Positions 5,487 to 30,410 of a stretch of 64,000 nucleotides of DNA are shown here, piece after piece. Both the position numbers and the translations under genes were made by a program. The first letter of the stretch is position 1, and each line of letters starts with the position of its first letter. A model generated the notes under the pieces. It did not search any database, was not told the DNA's origin, and saw nothing but the letters and a program-made list of their open reading frames with translations. This DNA comes from Candidatus Thiopontia autotrophica (GTDB taxonomy: Bacteria; Pseudomonadota; Gammaproteobacteria; GCF-002020875), in the NCBI GenBank assembly GCA_014384675.1, contig JACNFK010000024.1:17018-81017 (forward strand), in the 5' to 3' direction.

Positions 5487-7232
5487 ATGATTGATGGTAA
5501 GAAGAGGAGTTTCAAGAGGGGTGCAACCCTGGGTCTGGCAATAGCCATTACTCTGGGATTATCAGGGTGTGGTGACTCTGGTGATTCAGGCGCATCAAAA
5601 ACGGCAGCACCAGCACCGGCTCCAGCAGCAGCCCCAGCACCGGCTCCTGTCCCAGCAGCACCAGTCAAGGTGGCTGCGTCCGGGCCATCACTATCAGAGG
5701 CTGATTTTGAGCACTCCAAGAAGCTCTACTTCCAGCGCTGTGCAGGTTGTCACGGTGTACTGAGAAAAGGGGCGACAGGCAAGAGTCTGGAGCCAAAAGA
5801 TACTCGTGAGCTAGGTCAGGAGCGTCTGGAGAAGATTCTGACTTACGGAACAGACGGTGGAATGAACAACTTTGATGATATCTTCAGCAAGGAAGAGATC
5901 TCAATGATGGCCACCTACATTCAGTTGGAGCCACCAATTCCACCAGAGATGTCACTGGCGATGATGAAGGAGCGTACCGAGGTATTTATTGATCCCAAGG
6001 ACTATCCAACCAAGCCACTACATGGACGTAACTGGGAGAACTTCTTCGTAGTTATCGAGCGTGATGCTGGTAAGGCAGCAGTAATCGATGGTGATACCAA
6101 AGAGATTATCGACCATATTGACACTGGTTACGCAGTACACGTAATCAAGGCTACCGAGCACCATGAGACCGAGCATCCTGTTGGCGGTGTTGCCGGACGC
6201 TTCTGGTACACAATGGGTCGTGATGGCGTAATGAGCAAGATCGATCTGTGGCAGAACCCAGGAAGCATGCTGGTTGCCAAGACCCAGATTGCATATGATG
6301 CACGTGATGTTGCGATCTCTGGAGATGGTAAATATGTAATTGGTGGAGGCTACTGGCCACCACACTTCGTAATTGCCGATGCTGTTACCATGGAGCCACT
6401 GAAGGTAGTATCCACTCGTGGGGTAAATGTTGATGGTGAGTATGTAAATGAGTCACGTGTAGCTGCGGTCTACACCACTCCAAACGAGCCAACCTTCCTG
6501 GTTGCGGTCAAGGAGCTGGGGCAGATGTGGCAGGTTGACTACAGTGATATCGAGAATTTGGATATCACCAAAATCGACTCTGCGAAGTTCCTCCATGATG
6601 GATTCTTTGATCCAACCGGACGTTACTTCCAGATTGCGGCAAATGCATCCAACAAGATGGTTGTAGTAGATACCAAGACCCGCAAGCTTGAGGCGATGAT
6701 TGATACCACTGGCAAGAAGCCACACCCTGGCCCTGGTGCAAACTGGGATGATCCAAAACATGGTCCTGTAGGTGCTACGGTCCATCTGGGAACAGGTATG
6801 GTAACTGTATGGGGTAATGATCCAGCCGGTACACCAAGCAAGGCCTGGAAGATCGTACGTGAGATTGAGACTGATGGAGCAGGTGCATTTATCCGTACCC
6901 ATCCAAACTCCAAGTATGTATGGGCAGATCAGGTCAAGAACCCTGAGCCTGAGATACAGCAGTCTGTACAGGTTATCTCCAAGGAGACCGGCGAGATCGT
7001 CAAGACTATCCGGGTAACTGAAGAGCAGGGCAAGGCGGCACTCCATATTGAGTTTAACAAGGATGGAAGTGAGGCTTGGGTATCTGTCTGGAACCGTACA
7101 GATAACTCTAACCCAACTGGTGAGATCGTAGTCTACGATGCAGATACTCTTGAAGAGAAGGCTCGTATCAAGGGGCTGACCACACCAACCGGTAAGTTCA
7201 ACGTTTATAGTAGAACTAACCACGTAACTTGA
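5487..7232 (+). CDS. nirS: Cytochrome cd1 nitrite reductase NirS, copy 1, a lipoprotein form with an Ala/Pro-rich linker
   Basis: CAGCH c-haem domain plus a d1 propeller. The N-terminus has lipobox LSGC followed by GDSGDSG and (AP)n low-complexity sequence. Residues GPSLSEADF onward are identical to copy 2. Confidence 0.9.
   Translation: MIDGKKRSFKRGATLGLAIAITLGLSGCGDSGDSGASKTAAPAPAPAAAPAPAPVPAAPVKVAASGPSLSEADFEHSKKLYFQRCAGCHGVLRKGATGKSLEPKDTRELGQERLEKILTYGTDGGMNNFDDIFSKEEISMMATYIQLEPPIPPEMSLAMMKERTEVFIDPKDYPTKPLHGRNWENFFVVIERDAGKAAVIDGDTKEIIDHIDTGYAVHVIKATEHHETEHPVGGVAGRFWYTMGRDGVMSKIDLWQNPGSMLVAKTQIAYDARDVAISGDGKYVIGGGYWPPHFVIADAVTMEPLKVVSTRGVNVDGEYVNESRVAAVYTTPNEPTFLVAVKELGQMWQVDYSDIENLDITKIDSAKFLHDGFFDPTGRYFQIAANASNKMVVVDTKTRKLEAMIDTTGKKPHPGPGANWDDPKHGPVGATVHLGTGMVTVWGNDPAGTPSKAWKIVREIETDGAGAFIRTHPNSKYVWADQVKNPEPEIQQSVQVISKETGEIVKTIRVTEEQGKAALHIEFNKDGSEAWVSVWNRTDNSNPTGEIVVYDADTLEEKARIKGLTTPTGKFNVYSRTNHVT
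5682..7228 (+). repeat. Copy 1 of a 1547 bp perfect tandem direct repeat (nirS core); copy 2 lies 1712 bp downstream
   Basis: The 515 aa translations are identical and all off-frame and antisense ORFs are identical in both copies (e.g. 6018..6365 = 7730..8077). The boundaries are marked by mismatches at 5681/7393 and 7229/8941. Confidence 0.85.
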
Positions 7233-7240
7233 TGAGAGAG

Positions 7241-7276
7241 GCCCCTTTAACCTGACTGGTGAAAGGGGCTTTTTAC
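7241..7276 (+). terminator. Rho-independent terminator between nirS copy 1 and copy 2
   Basis: gcccctttaacc...ggtgaaaggggc hairpin followed by TTTTT. Confidence 0.6.
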
Positions 7277-8944
7277 AAGAGGAGGTTTTTTGTTTTGTTT
7301 AGGAGAACTATAAAGATGAAGAAATTATCATTGACTGCATTAAGTCTTGCAGTAGGTGTTGCAATGGGAGGGGTTGGCACTACAGTAAGTGCTGGGCCAT
7401 CACTATCAGAGGCTGATTTTGAGCACTCCAAGAAGCTCTACTTCCAGCGCTGTGCAGGTTGTCACGGTGTACTGAGAAAAGGGGCGACAGGCAAGAGTCT
7501 GGAGCCAAAAGATACTCGTGAGCTAGGTCAGGAGCGTCTGGAGAAGATTCTGACTTACGGAACAGACGGTGGAATGAACAACTTTGATGATATCTTCAGC
7601 AAGGAAGAGATCTCAATGATGGCCACCTACATTCAGTTGGAGCCACCAATTCCACCAGAGATGTCACTGGCGATGATGAAGGAGCGTACCGAGGTATTTA
7701 TTGATCCCAAGGACTATCCAACCAAGCCACTACATGGACGTAACTGGGAGAACTTCTTCGTAGTTATCGAGCGTGATGCTGGTAAGGCAGCAGTAATCGA
7801 TGGTGATACCAAAGAGATTATCGACCATATTGACACTGGTTACGCAGTACACGTAATCAAGGCTACCGAGCACCATGAGACCGAGCATCCTGTTGGCGGT
7901 GTTGCCGGACGCTTCTGGTACACAATGGGTCGTGATGGCGTAATGAGCAAGATCGATCTGTGGCAGAACCCAGGAAGCATGCTGGTTGCCAAGACCCAGA
8001 TTGCATATGATGCACGTGATGTTGCGATCTCTGGAGATGGTAAATATGTAATTGGTGGAGGCTACTGGCCACCACACTTCGTAATTGCCGATGCTGTTAC
8101 CATGGAGCCACTGAAGGTAGTATCCACTCGTGGGGTAAATGTTGATGGTGAGTATGTAAATGAGTCACGTGTAGCTGCGGTCTACACCACTCCAAACGAG
8201 CCAACCTTCCTGGTTGCGGTCAAGGAGCTGGGGCAGATGTGGCAGGTTGACTACAGTGATATCGAGAATTTGGATATCACCAAAATCGACTCTGCGAAGT
8301 TCCTCCATGATGGATTCTTTGATCCAACCGGACGTTACTTCCAGATTGCGGCAAATGCATCCAACAAGATGGTTGTAGTAGATACCAAGACCCGCAAGCT
8401 TGAGGCGATGATTGATACCACTGGCAAGAAGCCACACCCTGGCCCTGGTGCAAACTGGGATGATCCAAAACATGGTCCTGTAGGTGCTACGGTCCATCTG
8501 GGAACAGGTATGGTAACTGTATGGGGTAATGATCCAGCCGGTACACCAAGCAAGGCCTGGAAGATCGTACGTGAGATTGAGACTGATGGAGCAGGTGCAT
8601 TTATCCGTACCCATCCAAACTCCAAGTATGTATGGGCAGATCAGGTCAAGAACCCTGAGCCTGAGATACAGCAGTCTGTACAGGTTATCTCCAAGGAGAC
8701 CGGCGAGATCGTCAAGACTATCCGGGTAACTGAAGAGCAGGGCAAGGCGGCACTCCATATTGAGTTTAACAAGGATGGAAGTGAGGCTTGGGTATCTGTC
8801 TGGAACCGTACAGATAACTCTAACCCAACTGGTGAGATCGTAGTCTACGATGCAGATACTCTTGAAGAGAAGGCTCGTATCAAGGGGCTGACCACACCAA
8901 CCGGTAAGTTCAACGTTTATAGTAGAACTAACCACGTAACCTAA
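7259..8944 (+). CDS. nirS: Cytochrome cd1 nitrite reductase NirS, copy 2, a soluble periplasmic form (likely start ATG 7316, MKKLSLTALSLAVG)
   Basis: Sec signal peptide ending VSA-G; otherwise identical to copy 1. Confidence 0.9.
   Translation: MKGAFYKRRFFVLFRRTIKMKKLSLTALSLAVGVAMGGVGTTVSAGPSLSEADFEHSKKLYFQRCAGCHGVLRKGATGKSLEPKDTRELGQERLEKILTYGTDGGMNNFDDIFSKEEISMMATYIQLEPPIPPEMSLAMMKERTEVFIDPKDYPTKPLHGRNWENFFVVIERDAGKAAVIDGDTKEIIDHIDTGYAVHVIKATEHHETEHPVGGVAGRFWYTMGRDGVMSKIDLWQNPGSMLVAKTQIAYDARDVAISGDGKYVIGGGYWPPHFVIADAVTMEPLKVVSTRGVNVDGEYVNESRVAAVYTTPNEPTFLVAVKELGQMWQVDYSDIENLDITKIDSAKFLHDGFFDPTGRYFQIAANASNKMVVVDTKTRKLEAMIDTTGKKPHPGPGANWDDPKHGPVGATVHLGTGMVTVWGNDPAGTPSKAWKIVREIETDGAGAFIRTHPNSKYVWADQVKNPEPEIQQSVQVISKETGEIVKTIRVTEEQGKAALHIEFNKDGSEAWVSVWNRTDNSNPTGEIVVYDADTLEEKARIKGLTTPTGKFNVYSRTNHVT
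7394..8940 (+). repeat. Copy 2 of the 1547 bp perfect tandem repeat
   Basis: See copy 1. Confidence 0.85.
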
Positions 8945-8954: not shown

Positions 8955-8990
8955 GGCCGGCACCTGCATATCAGGTGCCGGTTTTTTTAT
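8955..8990 (+). terminator. Rho-independent terminator after nirS copy 2
   Basis: ccggcacctg / caggtgccgg stem followed by TTTTTTT. Confidence 0.6.
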
Positions 8991-10708
8991 ATAATTTATT
9001 TGTACTGCCTGAGGAGCCTTTAATGCCGATTCCTGAAAGACCAAGTTTCAAAGAGAGAATAAAGGTGCTGTTTTCGCGTCGTTTGATCCTCAATACGACA
9101 CTTGGAGGTGGTCTGGTGTTTGCCCTGTTTGGAATTATCTTTTGGGGTGGATTCAATACGGCAATGGAGGTAACAAATACCCTGGAGTTCTGTATCTCAT
9201 GTCATGAGATGGAGGACAATGTATACAAGGAGTACCAAAAGACTATCCACTATGCGAATCGTACTGGAGTACGGGCAACCTGTTCGGATTGTCATGTGCC
9301 TGATCCATGGATACATAAGGTAGCCAGAAAGATTGAGGCCAGTAACGAGGTGTTACACAAGATGTTGGGGACTATTGATACCCCTGAAAAGTTTGATGCA
9401 AAACGTCTGCAGTTGGCAAAAAATGTATGGCGTTCGATGAAGAGTACTGACTCCAGAGAGTGTCGGAACTGTCACAATTTTGAGGCGATGAATGGAGACA
9501 TGCAGAAGCCTCGTGCGATGAATCAACATACCAATGCGCTCAGGTCAGGACAGACCTGTATCGACTGCCATAAGGGTATTGCGCACAAAGGGGTTCATAA
9601 GCTGTTGAGTGATGAAGAGAAGGAGGCGATGGAGGCCCCTGATGAGTCACTGGCGAAACCTGAGGCAAAACTGTTCCAGCTGGCTGATCTGGATCCGGTA
9701 GCTGCGGCAGCAGCCAAGGCTGCAGCAGAGAAGGCAGCAGCAGAGGCAGCAGCAGAGGCAGCAGCCTCGGCCCAGGCAGGTAATTGGGAGACTATTGTGG
9801 GACGAGAGATTCACCTCATCTATCCTGGCCAGACATCCATAGAGTGGGTGCTGAATGGAACAGATCACGGTGGAGCAAATGCCTTTAAAAAGGGTGGAGA
9901 TCGATGCGTTACCTGTCATGACAAAGAGGCCAAGATTATGGGCGACCGTATAGTTGGTGGCACGCATGAGAAGGCGATGGAGCCAACTCCGATTGCTGGC
10001 AAGCGGGGTGGAGTTCCTGTCATGGTGAAGGCCGCTCATGATGGCGATAATCTATACATGCAGTTTACCTGGCATGATGTTGACCACCATACAGCGGGGC
10101 ATAAGTCGGTTGTTGAGGCTGAGCGGATGGATCCCGAGAACCCTGTCAAGCTGGCGATAATGTTTGCGACCGATCAAGTAGAGTTTGCAGACCGTTCAGG
10201 ATGTTGGGGAACTTGTCACCATGATGCCAATGGCATGCCCCATCAGCCAGAGGGTACAGATGTAACCAAGTACACCAAGGAGTCACGCACCAAGATTGAG
10301 GTCAAGGGGCGTCGTGGCAAGAAGCGTGGTGGCTGGGACAAGTTGAGAAAGCCTGAAGAGATTAAGGCTGCACTTGATCAGAAAAAGATCATGGATCTTG
10401 TGCGCTACAAGGCTGGCAGCAACCAGGCAGAAGATGGAATGATCCTGGCCAGCCGTGATATGAGTGGTAACAGTGATGACCTTGAGTTTGAGGGCAAGAG
10501 AGATGACCAGGGAAACTGGGTGGTAGAGATGAAGCGTAAGCTGAATTCCGGTGATGCAGATGATCTGTCACTGGCGCTGGACCAAGTCTATAATTTTGGT
10601 TTTGCTATCCATGATGACTACACCAATGGACGCTTCCACCATGTCTCATTTGGTTACAAGCTTGGGTTTGATGACCCAAAAGCGGAGATCAATGCTGTAA
10701 AATGGTGA
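8975..10708 (+). CDS. nirT: NirT/NapC-family membrane tetraheme quinol dehydrogenase fused to a ~330 aa C-terminal domain with extra haem motifs (likely start 9023, MPIPERP)
   Basis: TM helix then CISCH, CSDCH, CRNCH, CIDCH. An Ala-rich linker (AAAAAKAAAEKAAAEAAAEAAA) follows. The C-terminal domain carries CVTCH and CWGTCH (CX3CH). Confidence 0.8.
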   Translation: MPVFLYNLFVLPEEPLMPIPERPSFKERIKVLFSRRLILNTTLGGGLVFALFGIIFWGGFNTAMEVTNTLEFCISCHEMEDNVYKEYQKTIHYANRTGVRATCSDCHVPDPWIHKVARKIEASNEVLHKMLGTIDTPEKFDAKRLQLAKNVWRSMKSTDSRECRNCHNFEAMNGDMQKPRAMNQHTNALRSGQTCIDCHKGIAHKGVHKLLSDEEKEAMEAPDESLAKPEAKLFQLADLDPVAAAAAKAAAEKAAAEAAAEAAASAQAGNWETIVGREIHLIYPGQTSIEWVLNGTDHGGANAFKKGGDRCVTCHDKEAKIMGDRIVGGTHEKAMEPTPIAGKRGGVPVMVKAAHDGDNLYMQFTWHDVDHHTAGHKSVVEAERMDPENPVKLAIMFATDQVEFADRSGCWGTCHHDANGMPHQPEGTDVTKYTKESRTKIEVKGRRGKKRGGWDKLRKPEEIKAALDQKKIMDLVRYKAGSNQAEDGMILASRDMSGNSDDLEFEGKRDDQGNWVVEMKRKLNSGDADDLSLALDQVYNFGFAIHDDYTNGRFHHVSFGYKLGFDDPKAEINAVKW

Positions 10709-10709: not shown

Positions 10710-11069
10710 ATGATAATTATTAATTACAGGCCTCTCATGCTTCTGCTGGGAGGCCTTTTTTTTGTTTCAGGATGTTCAAATGATCTGCCTGTGCCAAAGG
10801 TGGTTGAGATTGAGATCATTAATTATGGATACCAACCACAAACTGTGACCATTAATCCCGGTGATACAGTACGCTGGATTAACCGTGAGAAGAGACAGTA
10901 CCACTCGGTAAAACTTGATGGTGATGGTGGCGGTGGTTCGGTTAATTCAGAGTATCTCTTTCCTGGGGAGAGCTGGGAGCATACCTTCAGTCAAGAAGGG
11001 GTGTACAACTATATGTGTGGCCCACATTCGGAAATGGTTGGAGCTGTGAAGGTGAAATCACTCATCTAG
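10710..11069 (+). CDS. Type-1 (blue) copper cupredoxin lipoprotein (plastocyanin/pseudoazurin-like)
   Basis: Lipobox FVSGC. H..YMCGPHSEM(V) has the C-x-P-H-x-x-M copper-ligand spacing. Its start lies 2 bp after the nirT stop. Confidence 0.75.
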   Translation: MIIINYRPLMLLLGGLFFVSGCSNDLPVPKVVEIEIINYGYQPQTVTINPGDTVRWINREKRQYHSVKLDGDGGGGSVNSEYLFPGESWEHTFSQEGVYNYMCGPHSEMVGAVKVKSLI

Positions 11070-11744
11070 GGTTTCTCGCATCTTCTCGGCATTGAGGATG
11101 TGGACCTCGTAGCCATGAACCTCAATCATCTTGTTCTTTTTCAGTTTCCCAAGAATGCGAGAGAAGGTCTCTCTCTGAATCGAGAGTCTGGAGGCAATTA
11201 CACTTTTCTGGGTCGGTAACTGAAAGGTGCCTTCATTGTCCTCGGCAGGAATGAAGGTGAGCAGATAGCTTATCAATCTGTGGGTGGCATTATGCAGGCA
11301 TAGGCCATCTATCTCCTGTACATAACTCTGTAGTCGCATACTAAGGTCAGACATGATCGAGAAGGTAGTGTCCGGATCTGAGCGCAAGATATTTTTGTAT
11401 ATCTTACTGTTGAAAACAAAGATCTCTCCACTCTCCAGGAACTGGCTGTTGACAGGGTAGGTGCCACCATCCATAAACATCATCGCCTCAGCAAAGGATT
11501 GGCCAGCCTGGAGAATATTTACCGTCTTCTCACCGCCGTCGAGGGCTAGTAGATAAAGTCGAATGGTGCCGGTTCTTACGATAAAGAAATGGGTTGCTGC
11601 TTCATCTTTAAGGAACAGGGTCTCATTTGGTTTTTTTCTGATTAGTTCGGATGTCTCCAACATCTCTTGCATGGACTCTTTGGTGAGAGAGGCAAAAAGC
11701 GGAGAGCGGCGAAGTTCACGCTCAAAAACAGTGGATAGAGACAT
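11058..11744 (-). CDS. dnr: Crp/Fnr-family regulator of the Dnr/NnrR type (no N-terminal Cys cluster)
   Basis: cNMP-binding fold plus a C-terminal HTH with the E--SR recognition motif (RETFSRIL) expected for TTGAT half-sites. Confidence 0.75.
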   Translation of the reverse strand: MSLSTVFERELRRSPLFASLTKESMQEMLETSELIRKKPNETLFLKDEAATHFFIVRTGTIRLYLLALDGGEKTVNILQAGQSFAEAMMFMDGGTYPVNSQFLESGEIFVFNSKIYKNILRSDPDTTFSIMSDLSMRLQSYVQEIDGLCLHNATHRLISYLLTFIPAEDNEGTFQLPTQKSVIASRLSIQRETFSRILGKLKKNKMIEVHGYEVHILNAEKMRETLDE

Positions 11745-11814: not shown

Positions 11815-11828
11815 TTGATGTAAATCAA
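11815..11828. promoter_or_regulatory. Perfect FNR/Dnr box TTGAT-GTAA-ATCAA between dnr and the hemerythrin gene
   Basis: Exact consensus, 66 bp upstream of the hemerythrin ATG and 78 bp upstream of the dnr ATG. Confidence 0.7.
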
Positions 11829-11887: not shown

Positions 11888-12475
11888 ATGAGTTTTATGA
11901 AGAAAAGTTACTCTATGTTTGCGCTATTTTCATTAATCATTATAGCGCTGGTAGTTGTCTTTCTGGGGTTCGTGGTATTTGGCCCGGGTAATCCGGTTCC
12001 ATGGGTAATATTGGTTATTCTGGCATTGATCCCATACTTTCATGAACGCAGTGTGCGCAAGGAGTATATAGAGTGGAGTAGCCAGTACGAGGTTGGTGTC
12101 AAATTAATTGACCATGACCACCAGAAGTTGGTTGGGCTGTTAAACCAGGTTGTCAGTGCCTCTCACTATAATATGGGGAAGGGGTATGTGAAGGGTGTCA
12201 TTGAGGAGCTGATCGAATATACCAAATACCACTTCGAGCGCGAGGAGGGGTTGATGCGGGATAACAACTGGACTGATATTGATGCCCATATGAAACAGCA
12301 CAGGGATATGGTGGATAAAGTGGAGGCCTTTAGTAGTAAATATACAGGGGATCTGGATGGTCAGGAGGAGCTCAGTACAGAGATTCACCACTTCCTGAAG
12401 GATTGGTTGCTTGACCATATTGTACGTACCGATAAAGAGCTTGGTCAATTCCTGATATCCAGTGGAGTGAAGTAG
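11888..12475 (+). CDS. Membrane-anchored hemerythrin-like (bacteriohemerythrin) protein
   Basis: Two N-terminal TM helices followed by an HHE cation-binding domain (IDHDHQKL, HFEREE, DWLLDHI). Confidence 0.75.
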   Translation: MSFMKKSYSMFALFSLIIIALVVVFLGFVVFGPGNPVPWVILVILALIPYFHERSVRKEYIEWSSQYEVGVKLIDHDHQKLVGLLNQVVSASHYNMGKGYVKGVIEELIEYTKYHFEREEGLMRDNNWTDIDAHMKQHRDMVDKVEAFSSKYTGDLDGQEELSTEIHHFLKDWLLDHIVRTDKELGQFLISSGVK

Positions 12476-13172: not shown

Positions 13173-13463
13173 CTATCGGGGGCGACAGGTTGATCTGACG
13201 TTGAAAACTTCTTTACTGTTGTCGGCAGCTTTTTCAGGCATGGCTATGGTTATCAAAAAATCACCATCTGCTGTTGTCTCCGTCTTGGTAGTAAACCCAA
13301 GCTCATTAAGATGGCCGTAGAGTGGGTGTGGCTCAACAGAGATATGGAGCTGGAATGAGTCACCTGGCTGCAGTGTCATTGCCATTGATGTAGCCTGCTT
13401 GAAAGGTTCGGGACACTTTAGTCCGCGCACATCAATAACGGCTATAGGTTGATTGCTTCTCAT
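13173..13463 (-). CDS. TusA-family sulfurtransferase (SirA/YedF/YeeD-like)
   Basis: About 80 aa with the DVRGLKCPEP motif (CPxP). Confidence 0.7.
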   Translation of the reverse strand: MRSNQPIAVIDVRGLKCPEPFKQATSMAMTLQPGDSFQLHISVEPHPLYGHLNELGFTTKTETTADGDFLITIAMPEKAADNSKEVFNVRSTCRPR

Positions 13464-13565
13464 TGAGTGGCATTATCCTACGGTTTCTCCTCTATAGTAA
13501 ATAGCTATTAATAATTGCGATTACTGTCGCAAGGATCAGTCGTAAGGATCAATACTTGGGAATCT

Positions 13566-15023
13566 CTAAAAAAGTTTAATAGGATGGGGGTTTGGGGGAT
13601 TTGACAAAATCTCTCTGATCCGGGCAGCCATATCATTGGCTGATATGCCATGAGCCAGTTTTGTTATGAATTCACCATTGGGAGCCATCAGAAAGACCCC
13701 TGAGGAGTGGTCCATAATGTATTGCTCAGGATCTCTCGATTCGTCCACAACCTTCTCATACTTCACATTATATATCCGGGCGACTCGGTCAGTCATGGCC
13801 TGAGTGCCGGTTAGTCCTGTCAGGGCAGGGTGAAAATAGTTAACATAGGTGCTTAGTACATCAGGGGTGTCTCTGGCAGGATCAACCGTAATAAAGTATG
13901 GCTGAATCTGCTCTGCATCATCCCCTATCCTGTTTAGTGCTGAAGAGATGGTGAGTAGTGAGGTTGGGCAGACATCGGGGCAGAAGGTGTATCCAAAGTA
14001 GACCAGGTGAAATTTCCCCAACATATCCTGATCAGTAAAGAGTTTGCCGTGATGATCACGTAGCATGAATTTGCCGCCAATATAGCTGGACGGTGTAGTG
14101 TCTTGGGCGCTGTTTTTAGCCACCTCTTTTGCAGACTCCTCTACAATTGAGTCATCCACATACTTGAGGCACTGTTTGATGGTGACTGTATTATGCTCCA
14201 TCAACTTGAAGTAGTGGTCTTCTCCAGCCTCTATCCTTGATCCAAAACTGTCCAGTAGACCAATATTTAGAGTGGTTCCATCGGTAAGCAGAGATAGTGC
14301 ATCTGGATCAATCTGTTGTTCAGTCAACAGACAGCTGTAGTCACCGCTCTTGAGCCGGGCTCTGTTTTGCAGAAATGAGAGCCCTCTGACTGGTGTCATT
14401 GGGGACTCTGCAACTACCCCTCGAATTTTTAGTGCATATGCCTGTTCAAAGTACTGCAAGGTATCATAGTAGGCCATTCCAATGCCGCTCTTCAATCCAC
14501 GGTATCCATACTCCAGACGACGATCCAGTTCAGCCAGTCTTCTCAATAGATTGCGACGGTTGTTTTCATATAGTGACTTACGTTCTGGATCAAGCTTTGT
14601 CAGCGCCCTGGCAAGTTCATCGGTAATGATGAGAATATTGCGGCTATCAAGCCAGATGAATGGATCACGCCTCTCCTTGTTCCAGCGTGATGTAAGGACC
14701 TTGATCTCCTCATTGTCGAGCAGGGTAAAGAGGGTGGTGTTTGGGCCAAGCAGCTCTAGCTGATTAACCATAAACTGCTCCAGCTCGGGCCCTATCCATA
14801 CAACCATATCTGCATCTCTGAGAGCATGTTGTTTGGATTTTGAGAGAGTTGCCGTGTATGGCGACTGCTGGTTGTCTACAAGTAGCTCGGGTGGGCGTGT
14901 ATCTGCCAGTAGACCAGAGAGAATTGAGTGGATTGGTTTTATGGTAGTGACAACCTTGAGCGGCTCACCACTCCAGGTAGCTGAAGAGAAGATCAGTAGT
15001 GCAAAGATGGAGAGCAGTCTCAA
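13566..15023 (-). CDS. Fusion protein: ZnuA/TroA-like periplasmic metal-binding SBP domain plus a C-terminal SCO1/SenC copper-chaperone domain
   Basis: Signal peptide and ~300 aa of cluster-9 SBP fold (DPFIWLD where ZnuA has DPHxWLD). The C-terminal ~170 aa carry CPDVCP (CxxxC) and a conserved His (MDHSSGVFL) as in Sco proteins. Confidence 0.7.
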   Translation of the reverse strand: MRLLSIFALLIFSSATWSGEPLKVVTTIKPIHSILSGLLADTRPPELLVDNQQSPYTATLSKSKQHALRDADMVVWIGPELEQFMVNQLELLGPNTTLFTLLDNEEIKVLTSRWNKERRDPFIWLDSRNILIITDELARALTKLDPERKSLYENNRRNLLRRLAELDRRLEYGYRGLKSGIGMAYYDTLQYFEQAYALKIRGVVAESPMTPVRGLSFLQNRARLKSGDYSCLLTEQQIDPDALSLLTDGTTLNIGLLDSFGSRIEAGEDHYFKLMEHNTVTIKQCLKYVDDSIVEESAKEVAKNSAQDTTPSSYIGGKFMLRDHHGKLFTDQDMLGKFHLVYFGYTFCPDVCPTSLLTISSALNRIGDDAEQIQPYFITVDPARDTPDVLSTYVNYFHPALTGLTGTQAMTDRVARIYNVKYEKVVDESRDPEQYIMDHSSGVFLMAPNGEFITKLAHGISANDMAARIREILSNPPNPHPIKLF

Positions 15024-15367
15024 AACAGCTTCTCCTGATGGTTCAGAAATCCTGTTTCCAGCTGCTCAATACTGCTATCAACCTGCTGACTGAGCTCTTT
15101 TTCACTGGGACATTGGGTTCCTGATTTTATAATGGCGAGAAAGGATTTGTTGGTTGCCTCGTCAAAAGCTATCCCGATAACCCTGATCTTGGGGACCGTT
15201 GCAACCATGGACCGCTTCATTCTACGGGTCTCATCGATGTATCCACAATTAAGAGCAATACCGTTAAGCTCACCCAGCTGCTTCACTCTCTCAAGTTGTT
15301 GGTCACTGACGGCATAAGCTGGTGCAGTCAGCAGTGCAAGACAAGGTATAAGGTATCTTTTTTTCAT
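15020..15367 (-). CDS. Hypothetical small secreted protein (signal peptide, two Cys)
   Basis: ORF with a signal peptide ending AYA-VS. No recognisable family. Confidence 0.4.
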   Translation of the reverse strand: MKKRYLIPCLALLTAPAYAVSDQQLERVKQLGELNGIALNCGYIDETRRMKRSMVATVPKIRVIGIAFDEATNKSFLAIIKSGTQCPSEKELSQQVDSSIEQLETGFLNHQEKLF

Positions 15368-15439: not shown

Positions 15440-15453
15440 TTGATCAAGATCAA
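15440..15453. promoter_or_regulatory. Perfect FNR/Dnr box TTGAT-CAAG-ATCAA between the small secreted-protein gene (-) and menA (+)
   Basis: Exact consensus. Centre is 20 bp before the menA ATG and 80 bp before the minus-strand gene start. Confidence 0.6.
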
Positions 15454-15465: not shown

Positions 15466-16341
15466 ATGAGCTCCCCATGGCTACAGGCTGTACGCCCCAA
15501 AACCCTCTCAATGGCGGTAATTCCCGTTCTTCTGGGGGCTGTGGTAGCCCATACAGAGAGCGCTCTATTTAAACCGCTACTACTCTCCCTTGTCCTTCTG
15601 GCTGCTCTTCTTATCCAGATTGGAACAAATCTATACAATGATGTTGGGGATGCAGAGCGTGGGGCAGATGGGCCAGACCGTCTGGGTCCAAAGCGGATGG
15701 TAGCGGCAGGGGTGTTGAGTGCGGGCAGTGTTCGAAAGGCTGCGATTCTCTCTTTTTTTGGTGCTTTTGTAATAGGTGTGGCCCTGGTTGTGGTTGGTGG
15801 GTTGCCAATCATCTTTATCGGGTTGTCATCAATTGCCGCAGGGATCGCCTATACCGGAGGCAGACTTCCCATTGCCTACACATTTATGGGGGAGCTGTTT
15901 GTCTTTCTCTTCTTTGGGGTTGTTGCAGTTATGGGTACTACCTATCTCATCACTCTGCAGTGGAGCTCTACAGCACTGTTGGTTGGGTCCGTCATAGGGT
16001 TGTTGGCGGCGGCAGTTCTGGTTGTAAATAACTATCGGGATATTGATACTGACCGTGCGGTGGGGAAGAATACCCTGGCAGTCACTCTTGGAGCAGCGCT
16101 CACCAGGGTTCTCTATCTCACGCTTTTATTGACCCCATTTCTGGTGTTGCTGGTGCTCTCTGAACAACTTCAGAAGCCGCTACTGATCTGGGTTATGATG
16201 CCGGCACTGCCGGTTTCACTCTATCTGGGGAGAAAGATATATCTTCTCCCTCACGGTCGAGGGTTAAACCAGCTGTTGGCGCAGACGGCTCAGCTGCAGC
16301 TTCTGTTCGGGATATTGATGATGTTTGGACTTTACCTATGA
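15466..16341 (+). CDS. menA: 1,4-dihydroxy-2-naphthoate octaprenyltransferase (UbiA family)
   Basis: N-terminal WLQAVRPKTL as in MenA, NDVGDAERGADGPDR motif, multiple TM helices. Confidence 0.8.
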   Translation: MSSPWLQAVRPKTLSMAVIPVLLGAVVAHTESALFKPLLLSLVLLAALLIQIGTNLYNDVGDAERGADGPDRLGPKRMVAAGVLSAGSVRKAAILSFFGAFVIGVALVVVGGLPIIFIGLSSIAAGIAYTGGRLPIAYTFMGELFVFLFFGVVAVMGTTYLITLQWSSTALLVGSVIGLLAAAVLVVNNYRDIDTDRAVGKNTLAVTLGAALTRVLYLTLLLTPFLVLLVLSEQLQKPLLIWVMMPALPVSLYLGRKIYLLPHGRGLNQLLAQTAQLQLLFGILMMFGLYL

Positions 16342-17180
16342 AAATAAAAAATATAGCCATTGTAGCCGCTCTTTTACTCTCACCCCTCTCTCTTGCCGAC
16401 ACCCACAGTCAGGAGCATGAGGCATCAGTTCTGCTCCCCCCAACATCCATTGCCCAGTGGTACAAGCCACAAAACAAGCGACAGGTATGGCTTCATACCA
16501 TGTTCCGTCTACGCCGCGCTATGCTGGCAATCCAGGAGTATACGGCTCTGCAGGATGAGAAGCTGCTGGACAAGTGGGGCTCACAATTTATCAAGGACTA
16601 CAGAAGTATCACCGAGATGGTTCCAGAGTGGGGTGACGAGATTGAGCCAGGGTGGATTAATCGACTTGAGCAGGTGATCAGAGATAGAGATTGGGAGGCT
16701 ATGGGTGGGGCACTCAGAAAGGTGGGGATGACCTGTAGCTCATGCCATGATGACTATCGTGCAGTTACTGCGGCACTATACAGAACCCCGGATTTTGAGA
16801 AGGTGATGGTTGAGGATAGTGAGACCATGGAGGATCTATCTTATAAAGAGACAATGAATAACCTTACAACTTCCATGAACCGTTTCAAGATAGCGGTTGA
16901 GGATGGTCGCAAAACTGCTGCAACGGAGTATCTTGAGATGTTCTCAATCAGGGTAATTGATCTGGGTGAGAGCTGTAGCGGATGCCACCGTGATGAACAA
17001 CCTCGTGAACGCATTCTTGGTGAGGAGACAGAGTTCCTGCTGGAGGAGCTATCGGTTCTGCTGGCCGAAAATCCCGAAGGGGTTGGGAGAAAACTGGGTG
17101 AGGTGGGGGTTGCTGTCTGTGCTCGCTGTCACGGTGTTCATCGTACCCTCGCAGATCTGAGAAGAGTGGTTGAGCCATGA
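16338..17180 (+). CDS. Secreted c-type cytochrome with three CXXCH motifs, translationally coupled between menA and ubiE
   Basis: Signal peptide. CSSCH, CSGCH and CARCH motifs. Start overlaps the menA stop (ATGA) and stop overlaps the ubiE start. Confidence 0.65.
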   Translation: MKIKNIAIVAALLLSPLSLADTHSQEHEASVLLPPTSIAQWYKPQNKRQVWLHTMFRLRRAMLAIQEYTALQDEKLLDKWGSQFIKDYRSITEMVPEWGDEIEPGWINRLEQVIRDRDWEAMGGALRKVGMTCSSCHDDYRAVTAALYRTPDFEKVMVEDSETMEDLSYKETMNNLTTSMNRFKIAVEDGRKTAATEYLEMFSIRVIDLGESCSGCHRDEQPRERILGEETEFLLEELSVLLAENPEGVGRKLGEVGVAVCARCHGVHRTLADLRRVVEP

Positions 17181-17905
17181 GTGACAAGGGAGAGCAGCTT
17201 TCGCAGACCTTCGGTTACTCCAGGGTTGATGAGCAGGAGCGTGAAAAGAAGATACGTGCCGTTTTTCAGGCGGTCGCCCCCCGTTATGATCTGATGAACG
17301 ATATGATGAGCTTTGGTATCCACCGCCTCTGGAAGCGTCGTTTGGTAAAGATGGTCAACCCACAGAGCGCTGAGCTGATAGTCGATCTGGCTGGTGGTAC
17401 CGGCGACATTGCCGAGAAGATGGCGGCAGAGGGGCGTACGGTTGTTGTAATAGACCCCAGTGAGGCGATGATGGCAGAGGGGAAGAGGCGAGGTATCAGG
17501 GGAGTCGAGTTCCGGGTGGGAACAGGGGAGTCCATACCCCTGCCTGACAGCTCGGTTGATCGTCTTACCATCTCCTTTGGTATCCGCAATATGACAAATA
17601 TGGGGCAAGCTCTGAGTGAGATCAATCGTGTGTTAAAGCCTGGTGGAAAAATGTACTGCCTTGAGTTCTCCAGACCCCACTGGTTGATCAAGCCTTTTTA
17701 TGATCTCCACTCCTTTTATCTGATCCCACGTCTGGGAGCATGGGTGGCCAAGGCGCCAATCGCCTACAATTATCTGGTGGAGTCAATTCGCCGCTTCCCC
17801 GATCAGGAGGAGATGAAGAGGATGATGGAGCAGGCAGGATTCACCAATGTCAGTTACAGAAACCTCACCTTTGGAATTGCCGCCATTCATACTGGTGAGA
17901 AATGA
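17177..17905 (+). CDS. ubiE: Demethylmenaquinone/ubiquinone C-methyltransferase
   Basis: UbiE/MenG signature (DLMNDMMSFG, VDLAGGTGD), 242 aa. Confidence 0.85.
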   Translation: MSDKGEQLSQTFGYSRVDEQEREKKIRAVFQAVAPRYDLMNDMMSFGIHRLWKRRLVKMVNPQSAELIVDLAGGTGDIAEKMAAEGRTVVVIDPSEAMMAEGKRRGIRGVEFRVGTGESIPLPDSSVDRLTISFGIRNMTNMGQALSEINRVLKPGGKMYCLEFSRPHWLIKPFYDLHSFYLIPRLGAWVAKAPIAYNYLVESIRRFPDQEEMKRMMEQAGFTNVSYRNLTFGIAAIHTGEK

Positions 17906-18888
17906 GTGTTGATGAAGTAGATATCACCCTGGAGACCAGTGGCACCGAGGGTGTTGCAAAACAAGTCAGCTTCTCTGTAGAGAGATTGCGAGCCAGTGCC
18001 CGCATGGGGCGAGCGTTGGAGGATCTTCAGTCTGGTGACTGCTGGCTTAACTGTCTGCCACTGAACCATGTTGGTGGTCTCTCTATCAAGTATCGCTGTG
18101 AAGAGGCAGGAGCCGCCATGCTGCTTCATGAGGGCTTTGACCCGGAAAAAATTTATGGTGATCTAAAGCGGCACTTTGTTACTCATATTTCACTGGTTCC
18201 GGTAATGCTCTCGAAATTGCTGGACTATTTTGGAGATAAGCCCGCCCCTACATATCTAAAGACGGTACTGATCGGTGGAGACCATCTGCCAAAGTCACTG
18301 GCCCAGCGTGCTGTAGAGAGGGGGTGGCCCATTGTGGTCTCCTATGGGCTGACAGAGACTGCATCAAGGATCACCATGTTGCGACTCTCTGGTGAAAATA
18401 TTGCGGCATGGGATGATAGTGATGTAGGTCCTCCTCTGCCTGGAGTCTCTGTAACCATAGGGGGGCAGGGTGAGATCAGGATAAGGAGTGATCAGCTGCT
18501 GGGTGATCATGAGGTTGTAACCGCTGACCATGGGGCAGTTGATGACAGCGGTCACCTTCATGTTTATGGAAGGCTGGACTGTCGGATTATCTCGGGAGGC
18601 GTGACTATTGATCCTGTAACCATAGAGCAGCTGATGATCTCTGCACCAGGGGTAAAAGATGTGGGTGTAGGCTCTGTTCCTGACAAGGAGTGGGGTGAGC
18701 GTATTGTTGCAGTTATAGCTGGTGATATGAATCAGGACATTGTGGCTGGCTGGATGAGAGAGAATATTCCATCTGGTCTGCGCCCACGAGAACTGCTGTT
18801 GGTCTCCGAGTTAAGACGCAATCGTCTGGGCAAGCTGGATCGAGAGTGGTTAAAAAATCAGGCAGAGAGTGCGTTTAGCATACCCTGA
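17902..18888 (+). CDS. menE: Short-form o-succinylbenzoate-CoA ligase (AMP-binding superfamily)
   Basis: TSGTEG P-loop-like motif, YGLTET, and a length and context typical of short MenE. Confidence 0.65.
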   Translation: MSVDEVDITLETSGTEGVAKQVSFSVERLRASARMGRALEDLQSGDCWLNCLPLNHVGGLSIKYRCEEAGAAMLLHEGFDPEKIYGDLKRHFVTHISLVPVMLSKLLDYFGDKPAPTYLKTVLIGGDHLPKSLAQRAVERGWPIVVSYGLTETASRITMLRLSGENIAAWDDSDVGPPLPGVSVTIGGQGEIRIRSDQLLGDHEVVTADHGAVDDSGHLHVYGRLDCRIISGGVTIDPVTIEQLMISAPGVKDVGVGSVPDKEWGERIVAVIAGDMNQDIVAGWMRENIPSGLRPRELLLVSELRRNRLGKLDREWLKNQAESAFSIP

Positions 18889-20228
18889 ATCTTTAGTCCG
18901 ATCTCTGCTATCTCGTCTTCAGCAACTGACCCCTTAACAATGCCGGCACCGGCGTAGAGAATAGCTTTTTCATCTTCAACCATTGCGCAGCGTAGTAGCA
19001 CATGGATCTCTCCATCTCCATCAGGATCAATCCAGCCGGCACCACCACAATACCCGCCACGGTAGCTGTTGTTGTGTTCAGTTAGCCACTGGAGAGCCGC
19101 TGTTCTTGGGGTTCCACAGATTGCAGGGCTCTGGTGAAGGGCCTCAATCAGCTCAAATATGGAGGTACTGTCTCTTCCGTCTTCTGTTTTCAGCCTCCCC
19201 TTGATCGCGGTCAGTAGATGTTGAATATTCTCAAGCTTGTGAATGGTTGGCGTGGCTGGTATATCTACGGTCTCACAGAGTGGTAGCAGTGCACTGCCGA
19301 CAGCATCAACCACCAGCTGGTGTTCATGACGTAGCTTGGGATTCTTGAGCAGGAGCTGTTCCTGCATACTCTCCTCTTCTTCACTGCTGCCCCGGGGAAG
19401 GGTGCCTGCCAGGGCGTCAGACTCCACGTCGGCTCCTCGCTTGGAGAAGAGGCGTTCAGGAGGTGCGGCAATAAAATGTCTCCCTTCTATGGAGAACGAG
19501 AACTGCGCGGTTGATGGGCTGCTCCGTTCCAGTTTTTTCAGGGTTCGCTCTGTGCCTATCGGATTGGAGAAGTGAAACCGTTGCTGCTCTCCTATTACCA
19601 GCTTCTCGATTGTGTTGGAGTAAATGGTCTCAATAGCATCCCTGAAAATCTGATCTGCCGAATCAAGGCTGTTGTCCGGAGTAATGGTTGATGGGGCGCC
19701 TGGAGGAGGGTGGTTATCTAGAATTTCTCTCAGCTGGTTGATATCCTCCTGCCAGTTTTCCAGGATCTCTTCCTCTGCTATCCCCTCTCTCTGGTGTGAA
19801 AAAATGACACTCTGTCTCCCGCTCTGGTTGATGAGCTGAACGCGTGGCAGCATAAGTAGGGTGTTGGGGAACCCGTGCCACTCATTCTGCATTGGATCAT
19901 CCTCATGGAATGCGTAATGAAACAGAGTTCTTGGTGAGGCTCCGGTCTCTTCCGGGTCAAAAACAGCCCATGAGTTTGTGAGTTGCAGAAACTGTTCCCT
20001 GGCCTCGGTAAAGCGTTCTCTCCCTCTCAGCTCTCTCTGCCATCCGCTCTGCAGTGCGAGCAGCCTTACCCCTTCACGTGGGCTCCTCCAGTAGATACCA
20101 TTTTTTAGGGGTGGTGGGGCAGTGAATGGGCGCTCATTGAATGGCAGAATGATGCTGATAACCTGATCAATTTGGCTGTCACTGTTATTATAAACTAGAT
20201 TAAGTTCATGTTTTAACTTATTGATCAT
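18858..20228 (-). CDS. menF: Isochorismate synthase (chorismate-binding family)
   Basis: C-terminal chorismate-utilising motifs (GGAGWIDPDGDGE, YAGAGIV). Context in the men cluster. Confidence 0.8.
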   Translation of the reverse strand: MINKLKHELNLVYNNSDSQIDQVISIILPFNERPFTAPPPLKNGIYWRSPREGVRLLALQSGWQRELRGRERFTEAREQFLQLTNSWAVFDPEETGASPRTLFHYAFHEDDPMQNEWHGFPNTLLMLPRVQLINQSGRQSVIFSHQREGIAEEEILENWQEDINQLREILDNHPPPGAPSTITPDNSLDSADQIFRDAIETIYSNTIEKLVIGEQQRFHFSNPIGTERTLKKLERSSPSTAQFSFSIEGRHFIAAPPERLFSKRGADVESDALAGTLPRGSSEEEESMQEQLLLKNPKLRHEHQLVVDAVGSALLPLCETVDIPATPTIHKLENIQHLLTAIKGRLKTEDGRDSTSIFELIEALHQSPAICGTPRTAALQWLTEHNNSYRGGYCGGAGWIDPDGDGEIHVLLRCAMVEDEKAILYAGAGIVKGSVAEDEIAEIGLKIQGMLNALSA

Positions 20229-20255
20229 TGGGTGTTGTCTAAGTAAAAACCTGGA

Positions 20256-21077
20256 CTAGGTTCTTCGCTTGTGCTTTGTGAAGTCTGGCGGACGTTTTTC
20301 ATTAAAGGCATTACGGCCTTCCTGTCCTTCGTCTGACATGTAAAAGAGGGCAGTGGCGTTACCTGCCAGCTCCTGAATTCCGGCAAGCCCATCGGTATCT
20401 GCATTAAATCCAGCCTTGAGAAGACGTAGTGCTGTTGGACTGTGCTGCAACATCTCCTGGCACCAACGGATGCTCTCCTCCTCCAGCTTGTCAGCGGGGA
20501 CAACACGGTTGACTAGCCCCATATCCAGTGCCTCCCCGGCACTGTATTGACGACAGAGAAACCAGATCTCTTTTGCCTTTTTCATCCCTACGGTGCGTGC
20601 CAACAGACCCGCTCCAAGACCTGCATCAAAACTTCCGACCTTGGGGCCGGTCTGTCCAAAGATGGCACTGTCGGATGCGATGGAGAGATCACAGATCAGA
20701 TGGAGGACATGGCCACCACCTATGGCGTATCCATTTACCATCGCCACTACCGGCTTTGGCAAGGTACGTATCTGACGCTGCAGGTCGAGTACATTGAGAT
20801 GCTCTCCACCACTCTCATCCTTGTAGCCGCTAGCGCCACGAATCTTCTGGTCACCACCTGAGCAGAATGCCTTCTCTCCTGCACCGGTCAGGATAATGGC
20901 TCCTATCTCACTGTCCATATGTGCGCGGTGAAATGCATCTATCATCTCCTCTACAGTCTCCGGGCGGAAGGCGTTATGTACCTGGGGACGGTTGATGGTG
21001 ATTTTGGCAATCCCCTCTGCACTATCGTAGAGGATATCCCGGTAGTTGGAATCGATATCTCTTATCCACTCAATCAA
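20256..21077 (-). CDS. menB: 1,4-dihydroxy-2-naphthoyl-CoA synthase (crotonase fold)
   Basis: Crotonase signatures ([26 protein letters not shown]), 273 aa. Confidence 0.9.
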
Positions 21078-22903
21078 TGTAGTGACTCCCAGTATTGGTG
21101 ATGGTTACGGTTGCTGATATTGCGATCAATGGTCAATTCTATCAGTTTGGGATGGGGCTGTTGGAGCACCTCATCCAGGTATAGTGCCAGGCCATCTCTA
21201 TCTGTTACCTCTCTGTAGGGGATATCATAGAGGGCGGCAACTCTCTTGAACTCTACCGTAGTTGGGGTTAGCCAAAGTGACTCAAATTCAGGTAGCTGGG
21301 CTGGGGGAAGATGGCTGAAGATGTTGCCGCCACCATTATTGATCACAATAATTGTCAGATCCATCTCCAGCTCTTTTGCCAGATAGAGGGCGTTCAGATT
21401 GTGAAAGAGGGTAAGGTCACCTAGTAGTGCAACAACAGGGGTGTCGGGGTCTGTAACTGCACGAATGCCACAGACGGTGGCAAGGTTGCCATCAATCCCG
21501 CTGGCCCCGCGATTTGCAAACAGTTTTAGAGGCTCCTCTCTTTGAGTCATCCAACCATCGATATCTCTGATCACCATGGAGTTTCCACTAAACAGAATGG
21601 TGCCGCCAGGCAGTTGTCGGTTTAGCGTCCTGATTACCTGATCTTCACTCAGGTCGTCAGGGTTGCTTCTCCATTCTGCCGCTAACCGCTCCTTCTCTTT
21701 TAGTGTATGAAGATGGCTATTACCAGCCTGTGGCTGTGGGCGTCCAGAGGGACACCCGCAAGGCGAAGCGGGGAGATTGTCTGTAGGGTTGGGGTCTGCA
21801 TACTGTAGTAACTGTTGGCAGAAGGTTGCAGGGGAGGTAGAGATTTTTGTATTGGATAGTGATAGTGGATCGCTCCAGACAGTTTTGTGGTGCACGGTGA
21901 TGTAGCGTTTTGGCAGGCTCTCTTGTAGCAGAGTAGCTACCGCTTTCGATAGCGGAAAACGACCAAACTGGATAACCCACTCTGGACGACATAACCTGCG
22001 GTTCTTCTCATTACGGAGGATTCCGTCGTAGTGGGTAAAGAACAGTTGATTGTCGTCATCTCCCCAGCGCAGGTTGGAGAGTGGGTCTGCAAAAACTGGA
22101 GCCCCAAGACTCTCGGCAAGCTGGTTCAGTACTGTATTGAAGCCCTTGGGATAATGTGACTCTCCACACAAGATAACCCCTGGTTTGCCACTGACCTCCT
22201 GGCATATCTCCTGGTAGTCAATAACAGGGATGGTGTTATCAGCATGGTCCCTGGCGGCATATTGCAGGCCACTATTGTGCCACTTGATCTGCTTGCTGTT
22301 GCGGGCAAGAAGTGGTTCTCTAAACGGGATATTCAGGTGGACGGGCCCCGGTGCCGGATTCTCCATTGACTCAATCATCTGTGGAACCAGCTCTGTCAGC
22401 TGAGTAACTGGATCATCTATCTCATCCGGGGGAGGGGTGGTGTATCTGGCACTAACCTGTTCCCCAAAGATATTGTTCTGGGCAATGGTCTGGTTGGCCC
22501 CACAGTTGTGAAGTTCTGGTGGGCGATCTGCAGAGAGTAGCAGAAGAGGGGTGGATGAGTGGTATGCCTCAATAACGGCAGGGAGCCAGTTTGCAACCGC
22601 AGTTCCAGAGGTGCAGATCAGAGCTGTTGGGACTTCTCTCTTTTTGCTCTGTCCAAGTGCCATGAAGGCTGCATCACGTTCATCTACGATGACCCAATAT
22701 TTTGTATCGGGGTGACGAGCTACAGCAAGAGCCAGAGGAGTTGATCTGGAACCGGGTGAGATAACAAAGTGGGTTATGCCGCCATCCACCAGAGCCTGTA
22801 TCAGGGTGGCAGACCACTGCAGGTTTATAGCACCTATATCACTCATATCTCTGCAAAATATCTCTGAGAGCATCAGGGAGGGGTATCTTCTCTCCACTAT
22901 CAA
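21074..22903 (-). CDS. menD: SEPHCHC synthase (ThDP-dependent); likely true start near 22846 ([11 protein letters not shown])
   Basis: N-terminus resembles MenD ([21 protein letters not shown]), ThDP fold. Overlaps the menB start. Confidence 0.85.
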
Positions 22904-24935: not shown

Positions 24936-24961
24936 GGCAGGTATTCAGGATGGTAGAGTTG

Positions 24962-30380: not shown

Positions 30381-30410
30381 GTTTACGGACTTCGACTAAA
30401 TCGATCGGTT

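Follow-up and report, generated by a model that had tools for sequence, protein, structure and literature searches.

A ZnuA-Derived Domain without Its Metal Ligands, Fused to a Sco Copper Chaperone and Accompanied by a Small Secreted Protein: Candidate Accessory Genes of Clade II nos Operons

Introduction

Proteins of the Sco/SenC/PrrC family, such as ScoI from B. diazoefficiens, SenC2 from P. denitrificans and human SCO1, share a thioredoxin fold that carries a CxxxC motif and a distal His, and a mechanism of CuA assembly has been described for ScoI and PcuC (PMC6669012). P. denitrificans mutants in senC2 and pcuC lose nitrous oxide (N2O) reduction at low Cu (PMC7558416), and a senC paralogue is present in a Bacillus clade II nos cluster (PMC3475470). 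ZnuA and the other cluster A-I substrate-binding proteins (SBPs) have two lobes connected by a long backbone helix and bind their metal between the lobes through three His (or His/Glu/Asp), and one of them, Streptococcus AdcA (ZnuA-like plus ZinT), carries a second metal-handling domain at its C-terminus. The locus considered here lies in a 64,000-nucleotide stretch (the window) from Candidatus Thiopontia autotrophica (assembly GCA_014384675.1, contig JACNFK010000024.1, positions 17,018 to 81,017). It consists of two genes, one encoding a fusion of a ZnuA-like domain to a Sco domain and the other, directly upstream, a small secreted partner. Together, these would extend a Sco chaperone system by two components not yet characterised, and both genes are candidate new nos accessory genes. 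No description of the PF01297 plus PF02630 architecture, or of any ZnuA-Sco fusion, was found in the literature searched.

The fusion resembles the Sco/SenC proteins in its thioredoxin fold and CxxxC plus His motif, and its gene, like theirs, is found near those for PCuAC and for an enzyme with a CuA site. It differs from them in its predicted cleavable signal peptide, the absence of an anchor, a 265-residue domain of SBP fold, the novel small partner and its occurrence within clade II nos operons rather than cox/cco loci. The whole fold of ZnuA is retained, with the motifs KPIHS, GPELE, DP.WLD, YFE and LD..G and the Cys pair, whereas the three His are replaced by Tyr or Phe, the His-rich loop is missing, no ABC-3 (ATP-binding cassette) permease or ATPase lies nearby and a loop, EYGYR, is new. 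AdcA (7jj9) was the only two-domain ZnuA fusion among the PDB matches listed; both of its domains bind Zn and feed the AdcBC importer, whereas the window's fusion combines a ligand-less SBP half with a Cu chaperone and has no importer. A periplasmic multi-protein copper hand-off to CuA, as in ScoI-PcuC and NosL/NosDFY, is proposed for the present pair, which adjoins nosL/nosY and whose components share operons with PCuAC (L147, L168 and L169; L-numbers are the labels of the external genome and metagenome loci compared here). Unlike those systems, the pair involves two added components, a pseudo-SBP and a partner of 115 amino acids (aa), and is known here from its genes.

The Fusion Protein

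The fusion and its parts were located as follows.

13566-15023, minus strand: ZnuA-like/Sco fusion open reading frame (ORF), 485 aa, TTG start
14967-15023, minus strand: predicted Sec signal peptide, aa 1-19 (MRLLSIFALLIFSSATWSG), read from sequence
14160-14954, minus strand: ZnuA-like pseudo-SBP domain, aa 24-288 (Pfam, PDB alignment, Foldseek)
14079-14159, minus strand: linker between the domains, aa 289-315, of varying sequence and length and modelled with low confidence
13599-14078, minus strand: Sco/SenC thioredoxin-fold domain, aa 316-475 (Pfam, ScoI alignment, Foldseek)

Both Pfam domains are complete, with ZnuA (PF01297) matching aa 24-285 over profile positions 1-263 of 263 (E 3.8e-36, 125.4 bits, cutoff 29) and SCO1-SenC (PF02630) matching aa 316-452 over positions 1-134 of 134 (E 1.4e-46, 158.2 bits, cutoff 22.8). 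The initial annotation, made from the sequence of the window, had proposed a single periplasmic ORF joining these two domains, and this description holds. The signal peptide region coincides with a helix at aa 2-15 of the structural model, and sequence inspection revealed neither a lipobox Cys nor the transmembrane anchor usual in bacterial Sco proteins. In the model of the whole fusion (predicted template modelling score 0.68) the linker has a predicted local distance difference test (pLDDT) value of about 50, and the relative orientation of the domains is uncertain.

A search of 5.8 billion proteins returned 454 matches to the fusion. The best 120 clusters among the 454 matches all contained both PF01297 and PF02630, with lengths of about 460-500 aa and identities from 100% down to 46%; named sources were Sedimenticola, Thiolapillus, the Ridgeia tubeworm endosymbiont and Chromatiaceae. 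When the ZnuA-like half alone was used in an exhaustive HMMER search, fused members were recovered to about 35% identity and were followed by ordinary ZnuAs of about 300 aa. A scan of genome contigs with the full-length alignment mostly picked up the Sco motif FGYTxCPD, which is ubiquitous, and fusions made up no more than 7 of its 80 loci; an alignment restricted to the ZnuA-like half was therefore used for the metagenome scan, which yielded 80 loci, about 70 of them in-frame fusions and 6 cut by contig ends. The mean pairwise identities were 56.9% for the ZnuA-like half and 60.1% for the Sco half; the signal peptide (25%) and the linker (15%) were poorly conserved. The fusion is thus a real and widely conserved periplasmic protein. 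An artefactual read-through of two adjacent genes through a sequencing or assembly error, which a stop codon or ribosome-binding site near residues 290-320 might have betrayed, has next to no chance of being correct and was ruled out: the same in-frame fusion occurs in more than 120 clusters, in about 70 metagenome contigs from many projects and in complete genomes, and the linker, for all its differences in sequence and length, is interrupted in none of the homologues.

The ZnuA-like Half

The following features of this half are referred to below.

14856-14858, minus strand: codon of Y56, former Zn-ligand position
14658-14660, minus strand: codon of F122, former Zn-ligand position
14466-14468, minus strand: codon of Y186, former Zn-ligand position
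14499-14513, minus strand: loop E171-Y-G-Y-R175, subfamily-specific

The model of the ZnuA-like half superposed on E. coli ZnuA with Foldseek template modelling (TM) scores of 0.90-0.91 and a root-mean-square deviation of 2.2 A, and the structural Cys pair (C231/C285) is kept, while the His-rich loop is absent. Sequence alignment to E. coli and Salmonella ZnuA placed Y56, F122 and Y186 at the positions of His60, His143 and His207, respectively. The replacement of the metal-ligand His by Phe in the motif DPFIWLD had been noticed initially, and F122 does stand in place of E. coli ZnuA His143; that observation covered one substitution, however, and all three His are in fact replaced. Among 65 fused homologues, position 56 was occupied by Tyr (43), Phe (18), Leu (2), Asp (1) and His (1), position 122 by Phe (43), Tyr (20) and His (2), and position 186 by Tyr (54) and Phe (11), so that 62 of the 65 have His, Cys or Met at none of the three positions. 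As a control, all 117 of the 117 nearest ordinary ZnuAs carry His at all three. No alternative conserved cluster of Cys, Met or His was found in the ZnuA-like domain of the 65 homologues. The earlier suggestion that the SBP half might capture Cu is consequently left without support from the sequences. Because Tyr, Phe and Trp swap freely at the former ligand positions, the alignments suggest that the old site serves aromatic packing and not coordination. The third His is kept in more distant fused and stand-alone members, which suggests a stepwise loss of the metal ligands.

Several residues beside the old ligand positions are subfamily-specific (R119, R128, Y185, T188, Q194, A195, A197 and S259) and are predicted, from their proximity in sequence to those positions, to surround or line the old cleft, and D258 is invariant. 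The EYGYR loop is unique to the fusion family and absent from ordinary ZnuAs; it lies at the end of the backbone helix, where model confidence is low. P55 is common to ordinary ZnuAs as well and marks no family-specific loss. The NCBIfam scores fell far under the cutoffs, both for the ZnuA equivalog NF007091 (102.8 vs 268) and for AztC NF040870 (67.6 vs 350), and no ABC-3 permease or ZnuC-type ATPase was found among the scanned ORFs of the window or in 12 Pfam-annotated loci, in keeping with the initial statement that none is adjacent. Judged by its identity values, the ZnuA-like half is under strong constraint, about as conserved as the Sco half and not decaying. The description of this half as a scaffold rather than a transporter component agrees with the lost metal site and the missing transporter, but it understates the case, as the cleft appears remodelled, a new conserved loop has been added and the constraint resembles that on the Sco half.

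The Sco Half

13968-13982, minus strand: C348-P-D-V-C352
13707-13709, minus strand: H439

The closest solved relatives of the Sco half were found to be B. japonicum ScoI (4WBJ, E 1.2e-35) and human and plant SCO1, and the half is 36-41% identical to solved Sco structures. Its AlphaFold domain (AlphaFold2 pLDDT above 90) matched the Cu-bound Sco structures 6n5u, 4wbj and 1wp0 with Foldseek TM scores of 0.89-0.93. C348, C352 and H439 align with their counterparts in ScoI and SCO1 and are invariant in 65 of 65 homologues, and the proposed SCO1/SenC domain with a CxxxC plus His motif was accordingly recovered. By these alignments the Sco half is canonical, with an intact Cu/redox motif. Its first residue is aa 316, behind the SBP domain, and unlike typical bacterial Sco proteins it lacks its own membrane anchor.

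The Small Partner

15020-15367, minus strand: gene of the secreted partner, about 115 aa, directly upstream of the fusion

The initial account of the locus was incomplete in that it overlooked this gene. An AGGAG lies 6-7 nt 5' of the fusion's TTG, which overlaps the stop of the upstream ORF (cTGTTTTGAgac), and because of this overlap the 115-aa ORF and the fusion are probably translationally coupled. Inspection of the partner's sequence suggests a signal peptide with AYA|V at its end and, after it, four helices; the AlphaFold2 model (pLDDT 87.8) likewise has four helices. C41 and C86 are invariant, and the family motif reads LG.LNG.AL.C.Y...MK...PK.R..G..F..TN..F...CP. The family has at least 254 members, all of about 115 aa, with no PDB match and no consistent Pfam or NCBIfam match in scans of 60 and 20 homologues. 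The UniRef label "DUF3718" on one homologue was not reproducible. NosP and NosQ, small Nos proteins recently described in a 2025 preprint, were rejected as the partner's identity; they are restricted to clade I, lack signal peptides, take part in a cytoplasmic assembly and are unrelated to the partner.

Each of 11 external loci has a partner homologue directly upstream of the fusion, as do L091 and L092 and nearly all of the 80 metagenome loci for which upstream sequence is available. As judged from gene order, it is an obligate companion and the most constant feature of the fusion locus. In L089 a true partner (hidden Markov model E 6e-33) precedes a 294-aa ZnuA-like gene that has a natural stop and no Sco domain; since the partner occurs there with a ZnuA-like gene in the absence of Sco, the gene content indicates that it goes with the ZnuA-like module and not with Sco.

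Two side observations concern the stand-alone ZnuA-like genes. Another one, of 319 aa and 60% identical to the window's N-domain, lies at 8678-10731 of L098, has a natural stop, lacks both a Sco domain and a small partner and adjoins a Cas1 gene; it could be a remnant. Genes resembling membrane methyltransferases of the PEMT/ICMT family (L089 2680-3126 and L169 8255-8875), 34% identical to each other and on unrelated contigs, are found just upstream of the stand-alone ZnuA-like operons of these two loci.

Linkage to nos and Copper Chaperone Genes

The likely client system in the window is a clade II nos cluster, composed as follows.

24267-35415, minus strand: clade II nos cluster
33046-35415, minus strand: NosZ, probable true start MFKKT... 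at ~35343, Sec-type signal
31748-32476, minus strand: ORF between the putative nosB and nosZ
30411-31622, minus strand: putative nosB, 403 aa, no Pfam match, between nosZ and nosD
28959-30380, minus strand: nosD
28138-28962, minus strand: nosG
27164-28156, minus strand: nosH
26310-27299, minus strand: nosF
25786-26415, minus strand: nosL
24962-25789, minus strand: nosY
24267-24935, minus strand: dihaem cytochrome c

The position of the 403-aa ORF, conserved in L003, L086 and L010, suits the "nosB" of clade II clusters. In the window the pair lies 10 kb from nosY, with a men operon between them, and about 18 kb from nosZ, the distance given initially. The proposed connection with NosZ is strongly supported by other genomes, in which the gene stands inside or beside nos operons. 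The order small-fusion-nosZ was found in L003/L004 (Ridgeia symbiont), L113, L118, L144 and L149, and the order nosZ...nosL(-nosY)-small-fusion in L010, L091 and 15 metagenome loci; in L091, where the fusion is 35% identical, the ATG of the small ORF overlaps the nosY stop. The pair is contiguous with nos genes on the same strand in at least 22 loci in total (19 of the 80 metagenome loci plus L003/4, L010 and L091), and in L086 (Ca. Sedimenticola PURPLELP) it is divergent from nosZ. Of 21 loci with flanks of 12 kb or more, 6 contained nos genes, as did 8 of 22 loci whose flanks measured 5-12 kb, a co-location far above chance for a single-copy 10-kb cluster. If a nos accessory gene is defined operationally as one encoded within nos operons, the recurrent same-strand, contiguous placement of the pair across lineages makes its two genes candidates.

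Split and variant operons connect the module with known copper chaperones. L147 has the order nosL - sco - pcuAC - small - fusion, and L168 the order fusion - pcuAC without the small partner. The operon of L169 is split into PCuAC (E 3e-35), a stand-alone ligand-poor ZnuA-like gene whose start overlaps the PCuAC stop, and a stand-alone Sco (E 2e-46) that keeps its own N-terminal hydrophobic segment. The L088 operon combines a stand-alone ZnuA-like gene with genes for a DsbA-like thioredoxin and for a DsbD_TM/CcdA protein, and a DsbA-like match lies upstream of the pair in L104.

A putative regulatory site was found in the intergenic region common to the partner gene and the divergent menA, and three more occur elsewhere in the window.

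15440-15453: perfect TTGAT-N4-ATCAA FNR/DNR-type palindrome, centred 79 bp upstream of the partner's ATG
5252-5265, 5346-5359 and 11815-11828: the other perfect FNR/DNR-type boxes
11058-11744, minus strand: Crp/Fnr-family regulator (Pfam)

All four boxes lie in intergenic promoter regions of denitrification-related genes, the other three in those of nirE/nirS and crp-fnr/hemerythrin; four such boxes compare with 0.15 expected, and 0 of 100 shuffles reached this number. The Crp/Fnr regulator is a candidate reader of these putative sites. The box was rejected as a universal feature of the locus, being perfect only in the window, its twin and L007 (242 bp upstream), carrying one mismatch in L003 and absent from the other loci.

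Proposed Function and Alternative Explanations

With slightly more confidence than doubt, the locus is read as a two-gene periplasmic module that would help to build a copper centre of NosZ, most likely the CuA centre of Sec-exported clade II NosZ, in view of the parallel with the assembly of CuA assisted by Sco and PCuAC. Such a module would consist of a secreted four-helix protein with two Cys and of a soluble Sco domain joined through a flexible linker to a domain of ZnuA origin, which has lost its zinc site and would no longer serve an ABC importer. The Sco half might bind Cu and/or reduce the CuA cysteines of apo-NosZ, and the pseudo-SBP could be a protein-binding adaptor that replaces the usual membrane anchor of Sco, holding the small partner or docking on apo-NosZ or the Nos machinery. 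The small partner may be a Cu(I) donor, given that PCuAC fills the adjacent slot in two loci lacking the partner. A more elaborate version, in which an SBP was exapted as a metal-free protein-binding module and forms, with the 115-aa protein and Sco, a dedicated three-part machine for copper insertion (or Cys reduction and copper insertion) into clade II NosZ, is proposed tentatively and is rather doubtful.

Several points weigh against a role dedicated to NosZ. Sco proteins often serve several cuproenzymes, and a structural disulfide may be an equally simple reading of the partner's two Cys. In about two thirds of the long-flank loci neither nos nor nir genes occur within 10 kb, and in S. thiotaurini and Thiolapillus the pair stands among unrelated genes; the nos specificity of the pair is therefore not universal. 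In S. thiotaurini, nosZ is present elsewhere in the genome (PMC6440730). Clade I NosL, acting via NosDFY, is reported (PMC8457098; preprint) to supply Cu for both centres, and for this reason a Sco requirement for the CuA of NosZ is not established.

The loci without nos or nir neighbours, which are many, would also suit a general-purpose Sco for the CuA/CuB of haem-copper oxidases (cbb3/aa3) in microaerobic or anaerobic sulfur oxidisers, the nos linkage then reflecting shared low-oxygen regulation and island structure. Sco/SenC proteins are needed for the cbb3 and aa3 oxidases of model bacteria (PMC7558416), and the FNR box fits a microaerobic oxidase regulon equally well. Where the nos linkage is present, however, it is of operon level, with the pair on the same strand, contiguous and, in L091, overlapping the nosY stop. 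No cco or cox gene was detected in the 12 Pfam-annotated loci, the 80 metagenome loci not having been screened for oxidase genes, and the nos operon of L147 contains an ordinary Sco and PCuAC besides the pair. This oxidase role is considered unlikely. The same low probability is given to the Sco half being mainly a TlpA-like thiol-disulfide reductase that keeps the Cys of NosZ CuA, or of the partner, reduced, with the ZnuA-like module as a general adaptor for periplasmic proteins of thioredoxin fold. Via Sec, clade II NosZ leaves the cytoplasm unfolded (PMC11409646), and its Cys would thus be exposed to DsbA; the partner has two invariant Cys, and the L088 operon, with its DsbA-like thioredoxin and reductant transporter, and the match in L104 point in the same direction. 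Dsb-type neighbours occur in just one or two loci, however, whereas PCuAC, a copper donor, is a recurrent neighbour in the split and variant operons, and the Cu-ligand His439 is invariant, though pure redox activity needs none.

Poorer chances still are given to a ZnuA-like cleft that captures a ligand for Sco or NosZ, either Cu held by Tyr/Asp or an anion, for instance sulfide or thiosulfate. A cleft that is remodelled rather than decayed, with an invariant D258 and with conserved Tyr, Thr, Gln, Ser and Arg residues flanking the former ligand sites, would be compatible with such a function, as would the third His of the more distant members and the strong conservation of the domain. Against it stand the 62 of 65 homologues without Cys, Met or His at the ligand positions, the exchange of Tyr with Phe or Trp and the missing transporter partner. 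A module for assembly of a NosZ copper centre remains the favoured reading of the locus, at the strength given above.

Other Genes of the Window

The window is a denitrification island with nir genes (tandem nirS, nirE, nirF and a nirT-EB_dh fusion), a cupredoxin, the Crp/Fnr regulator, a hemerythrin, c-type cytochromes, the men operon and the clade II nos genes. The features nearest to the pair, together with those that gave rise to side observations, are listed below.

13173-13463, minus strand: DUF2249 protein, 96 aa, 102 bp downstream of the fusion
5487-7232 and 7259-8944, plus strand: tandem nirS
8975-10708, plus strand: NapC/NirT tetrahaem cytochrome fused to an EB_dh domain
11888-12475, plus strand: hemerythrin-domain protein
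15466-24379: men operon
17902-18888, plus strand: menE-like ORF, 328 aa

The product of 13173-13463 had been taken for TusA, an assignment that has to be replaced: it scored 44.8 bits against DUF2249 (cutoff 29.5) and 24.8 bits against TusA PF01206 (cutoff 28.6), the latter over profile positions 2-34 only. It belongs to a TusA-like clan and keeps the TusA-like CPEP motif (VRGLKCPEP). Outside the window, this gene was found beside the fusion in the twin and close relatives (L087 and L094-L096) and in none of the other loci. In the window, the two genes are separated by a weak promoter-like site and a terminator-like hairpin. From this arrangement, the DUF2249 gene is probably outside the core system.

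A full menaquinone (men) operon separates the Sco pair from nosY; its genes are menA, one of cytochrome c'-like type, ubiE/menG, one resembling menE, menF, menB, menD, a thioesterase gene and menC. In L003, L116, L127, L132, L134, L138, L153 and L154, too, men genes lie beside the pair or beside nos genes, and the operon may provide menaquinol for NosGH in a gammaproteobacterium. The menE-like product matches positions 170-357 only of the AMP-binding profile and appears to lack the N-terminal ~170 residues of that domain.

The products of the tandem nirS genes are identical at 516 of 518 positions over the mature region, with only their N-termini differing, which reflects either a very recent duplication or an assembly repeat. 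The NapC/NirT-EB_dh fusion follows nirS and precedes the cupredoxin gene, and the same fusion adjoins nirS in L086, L087 and L157. The hemerythrin-domain protein has an N-terminal hydrophobic (membrane) region and is encoded just downstream of an FNR box; a homologue is also present in the nir/nos region of L086.

Significance

Fusion proteins of this type are labelled in the databases either as "SCO family protein" or as "zinc ABC transporter solute-binding protein", the latter being a systematic misannotation, and the partner family, with its at least 254 members, has no annotation at all. The ZnuA-like half offers a clean case of a metal-transport SBP retained under strong selection despite the loss of all its metal ligands. 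The CuA donor is debated for any N2O reductase, with NosL/NosDFY on one side and Sco/PCuAC on the other. Organisms with clade II NosZ are major sinks of N2O, a greenhouse gas, and the assembly of the copper centres of this enzyme after Sec export is poorly understood. The pair provides two concrete candidate genes inside the nos operons of marine sulfur-oxidising Gammaproteobacteria, its carriers including Sedimenticola, Thiolapillus, tubeworm and clam symbionts and Chromatiales. If the more elaborate, three-part version of the favoured reading is true, two unnamed genes would be nos accessory genes and would explain how CuA is built in clade II N2O reducers.

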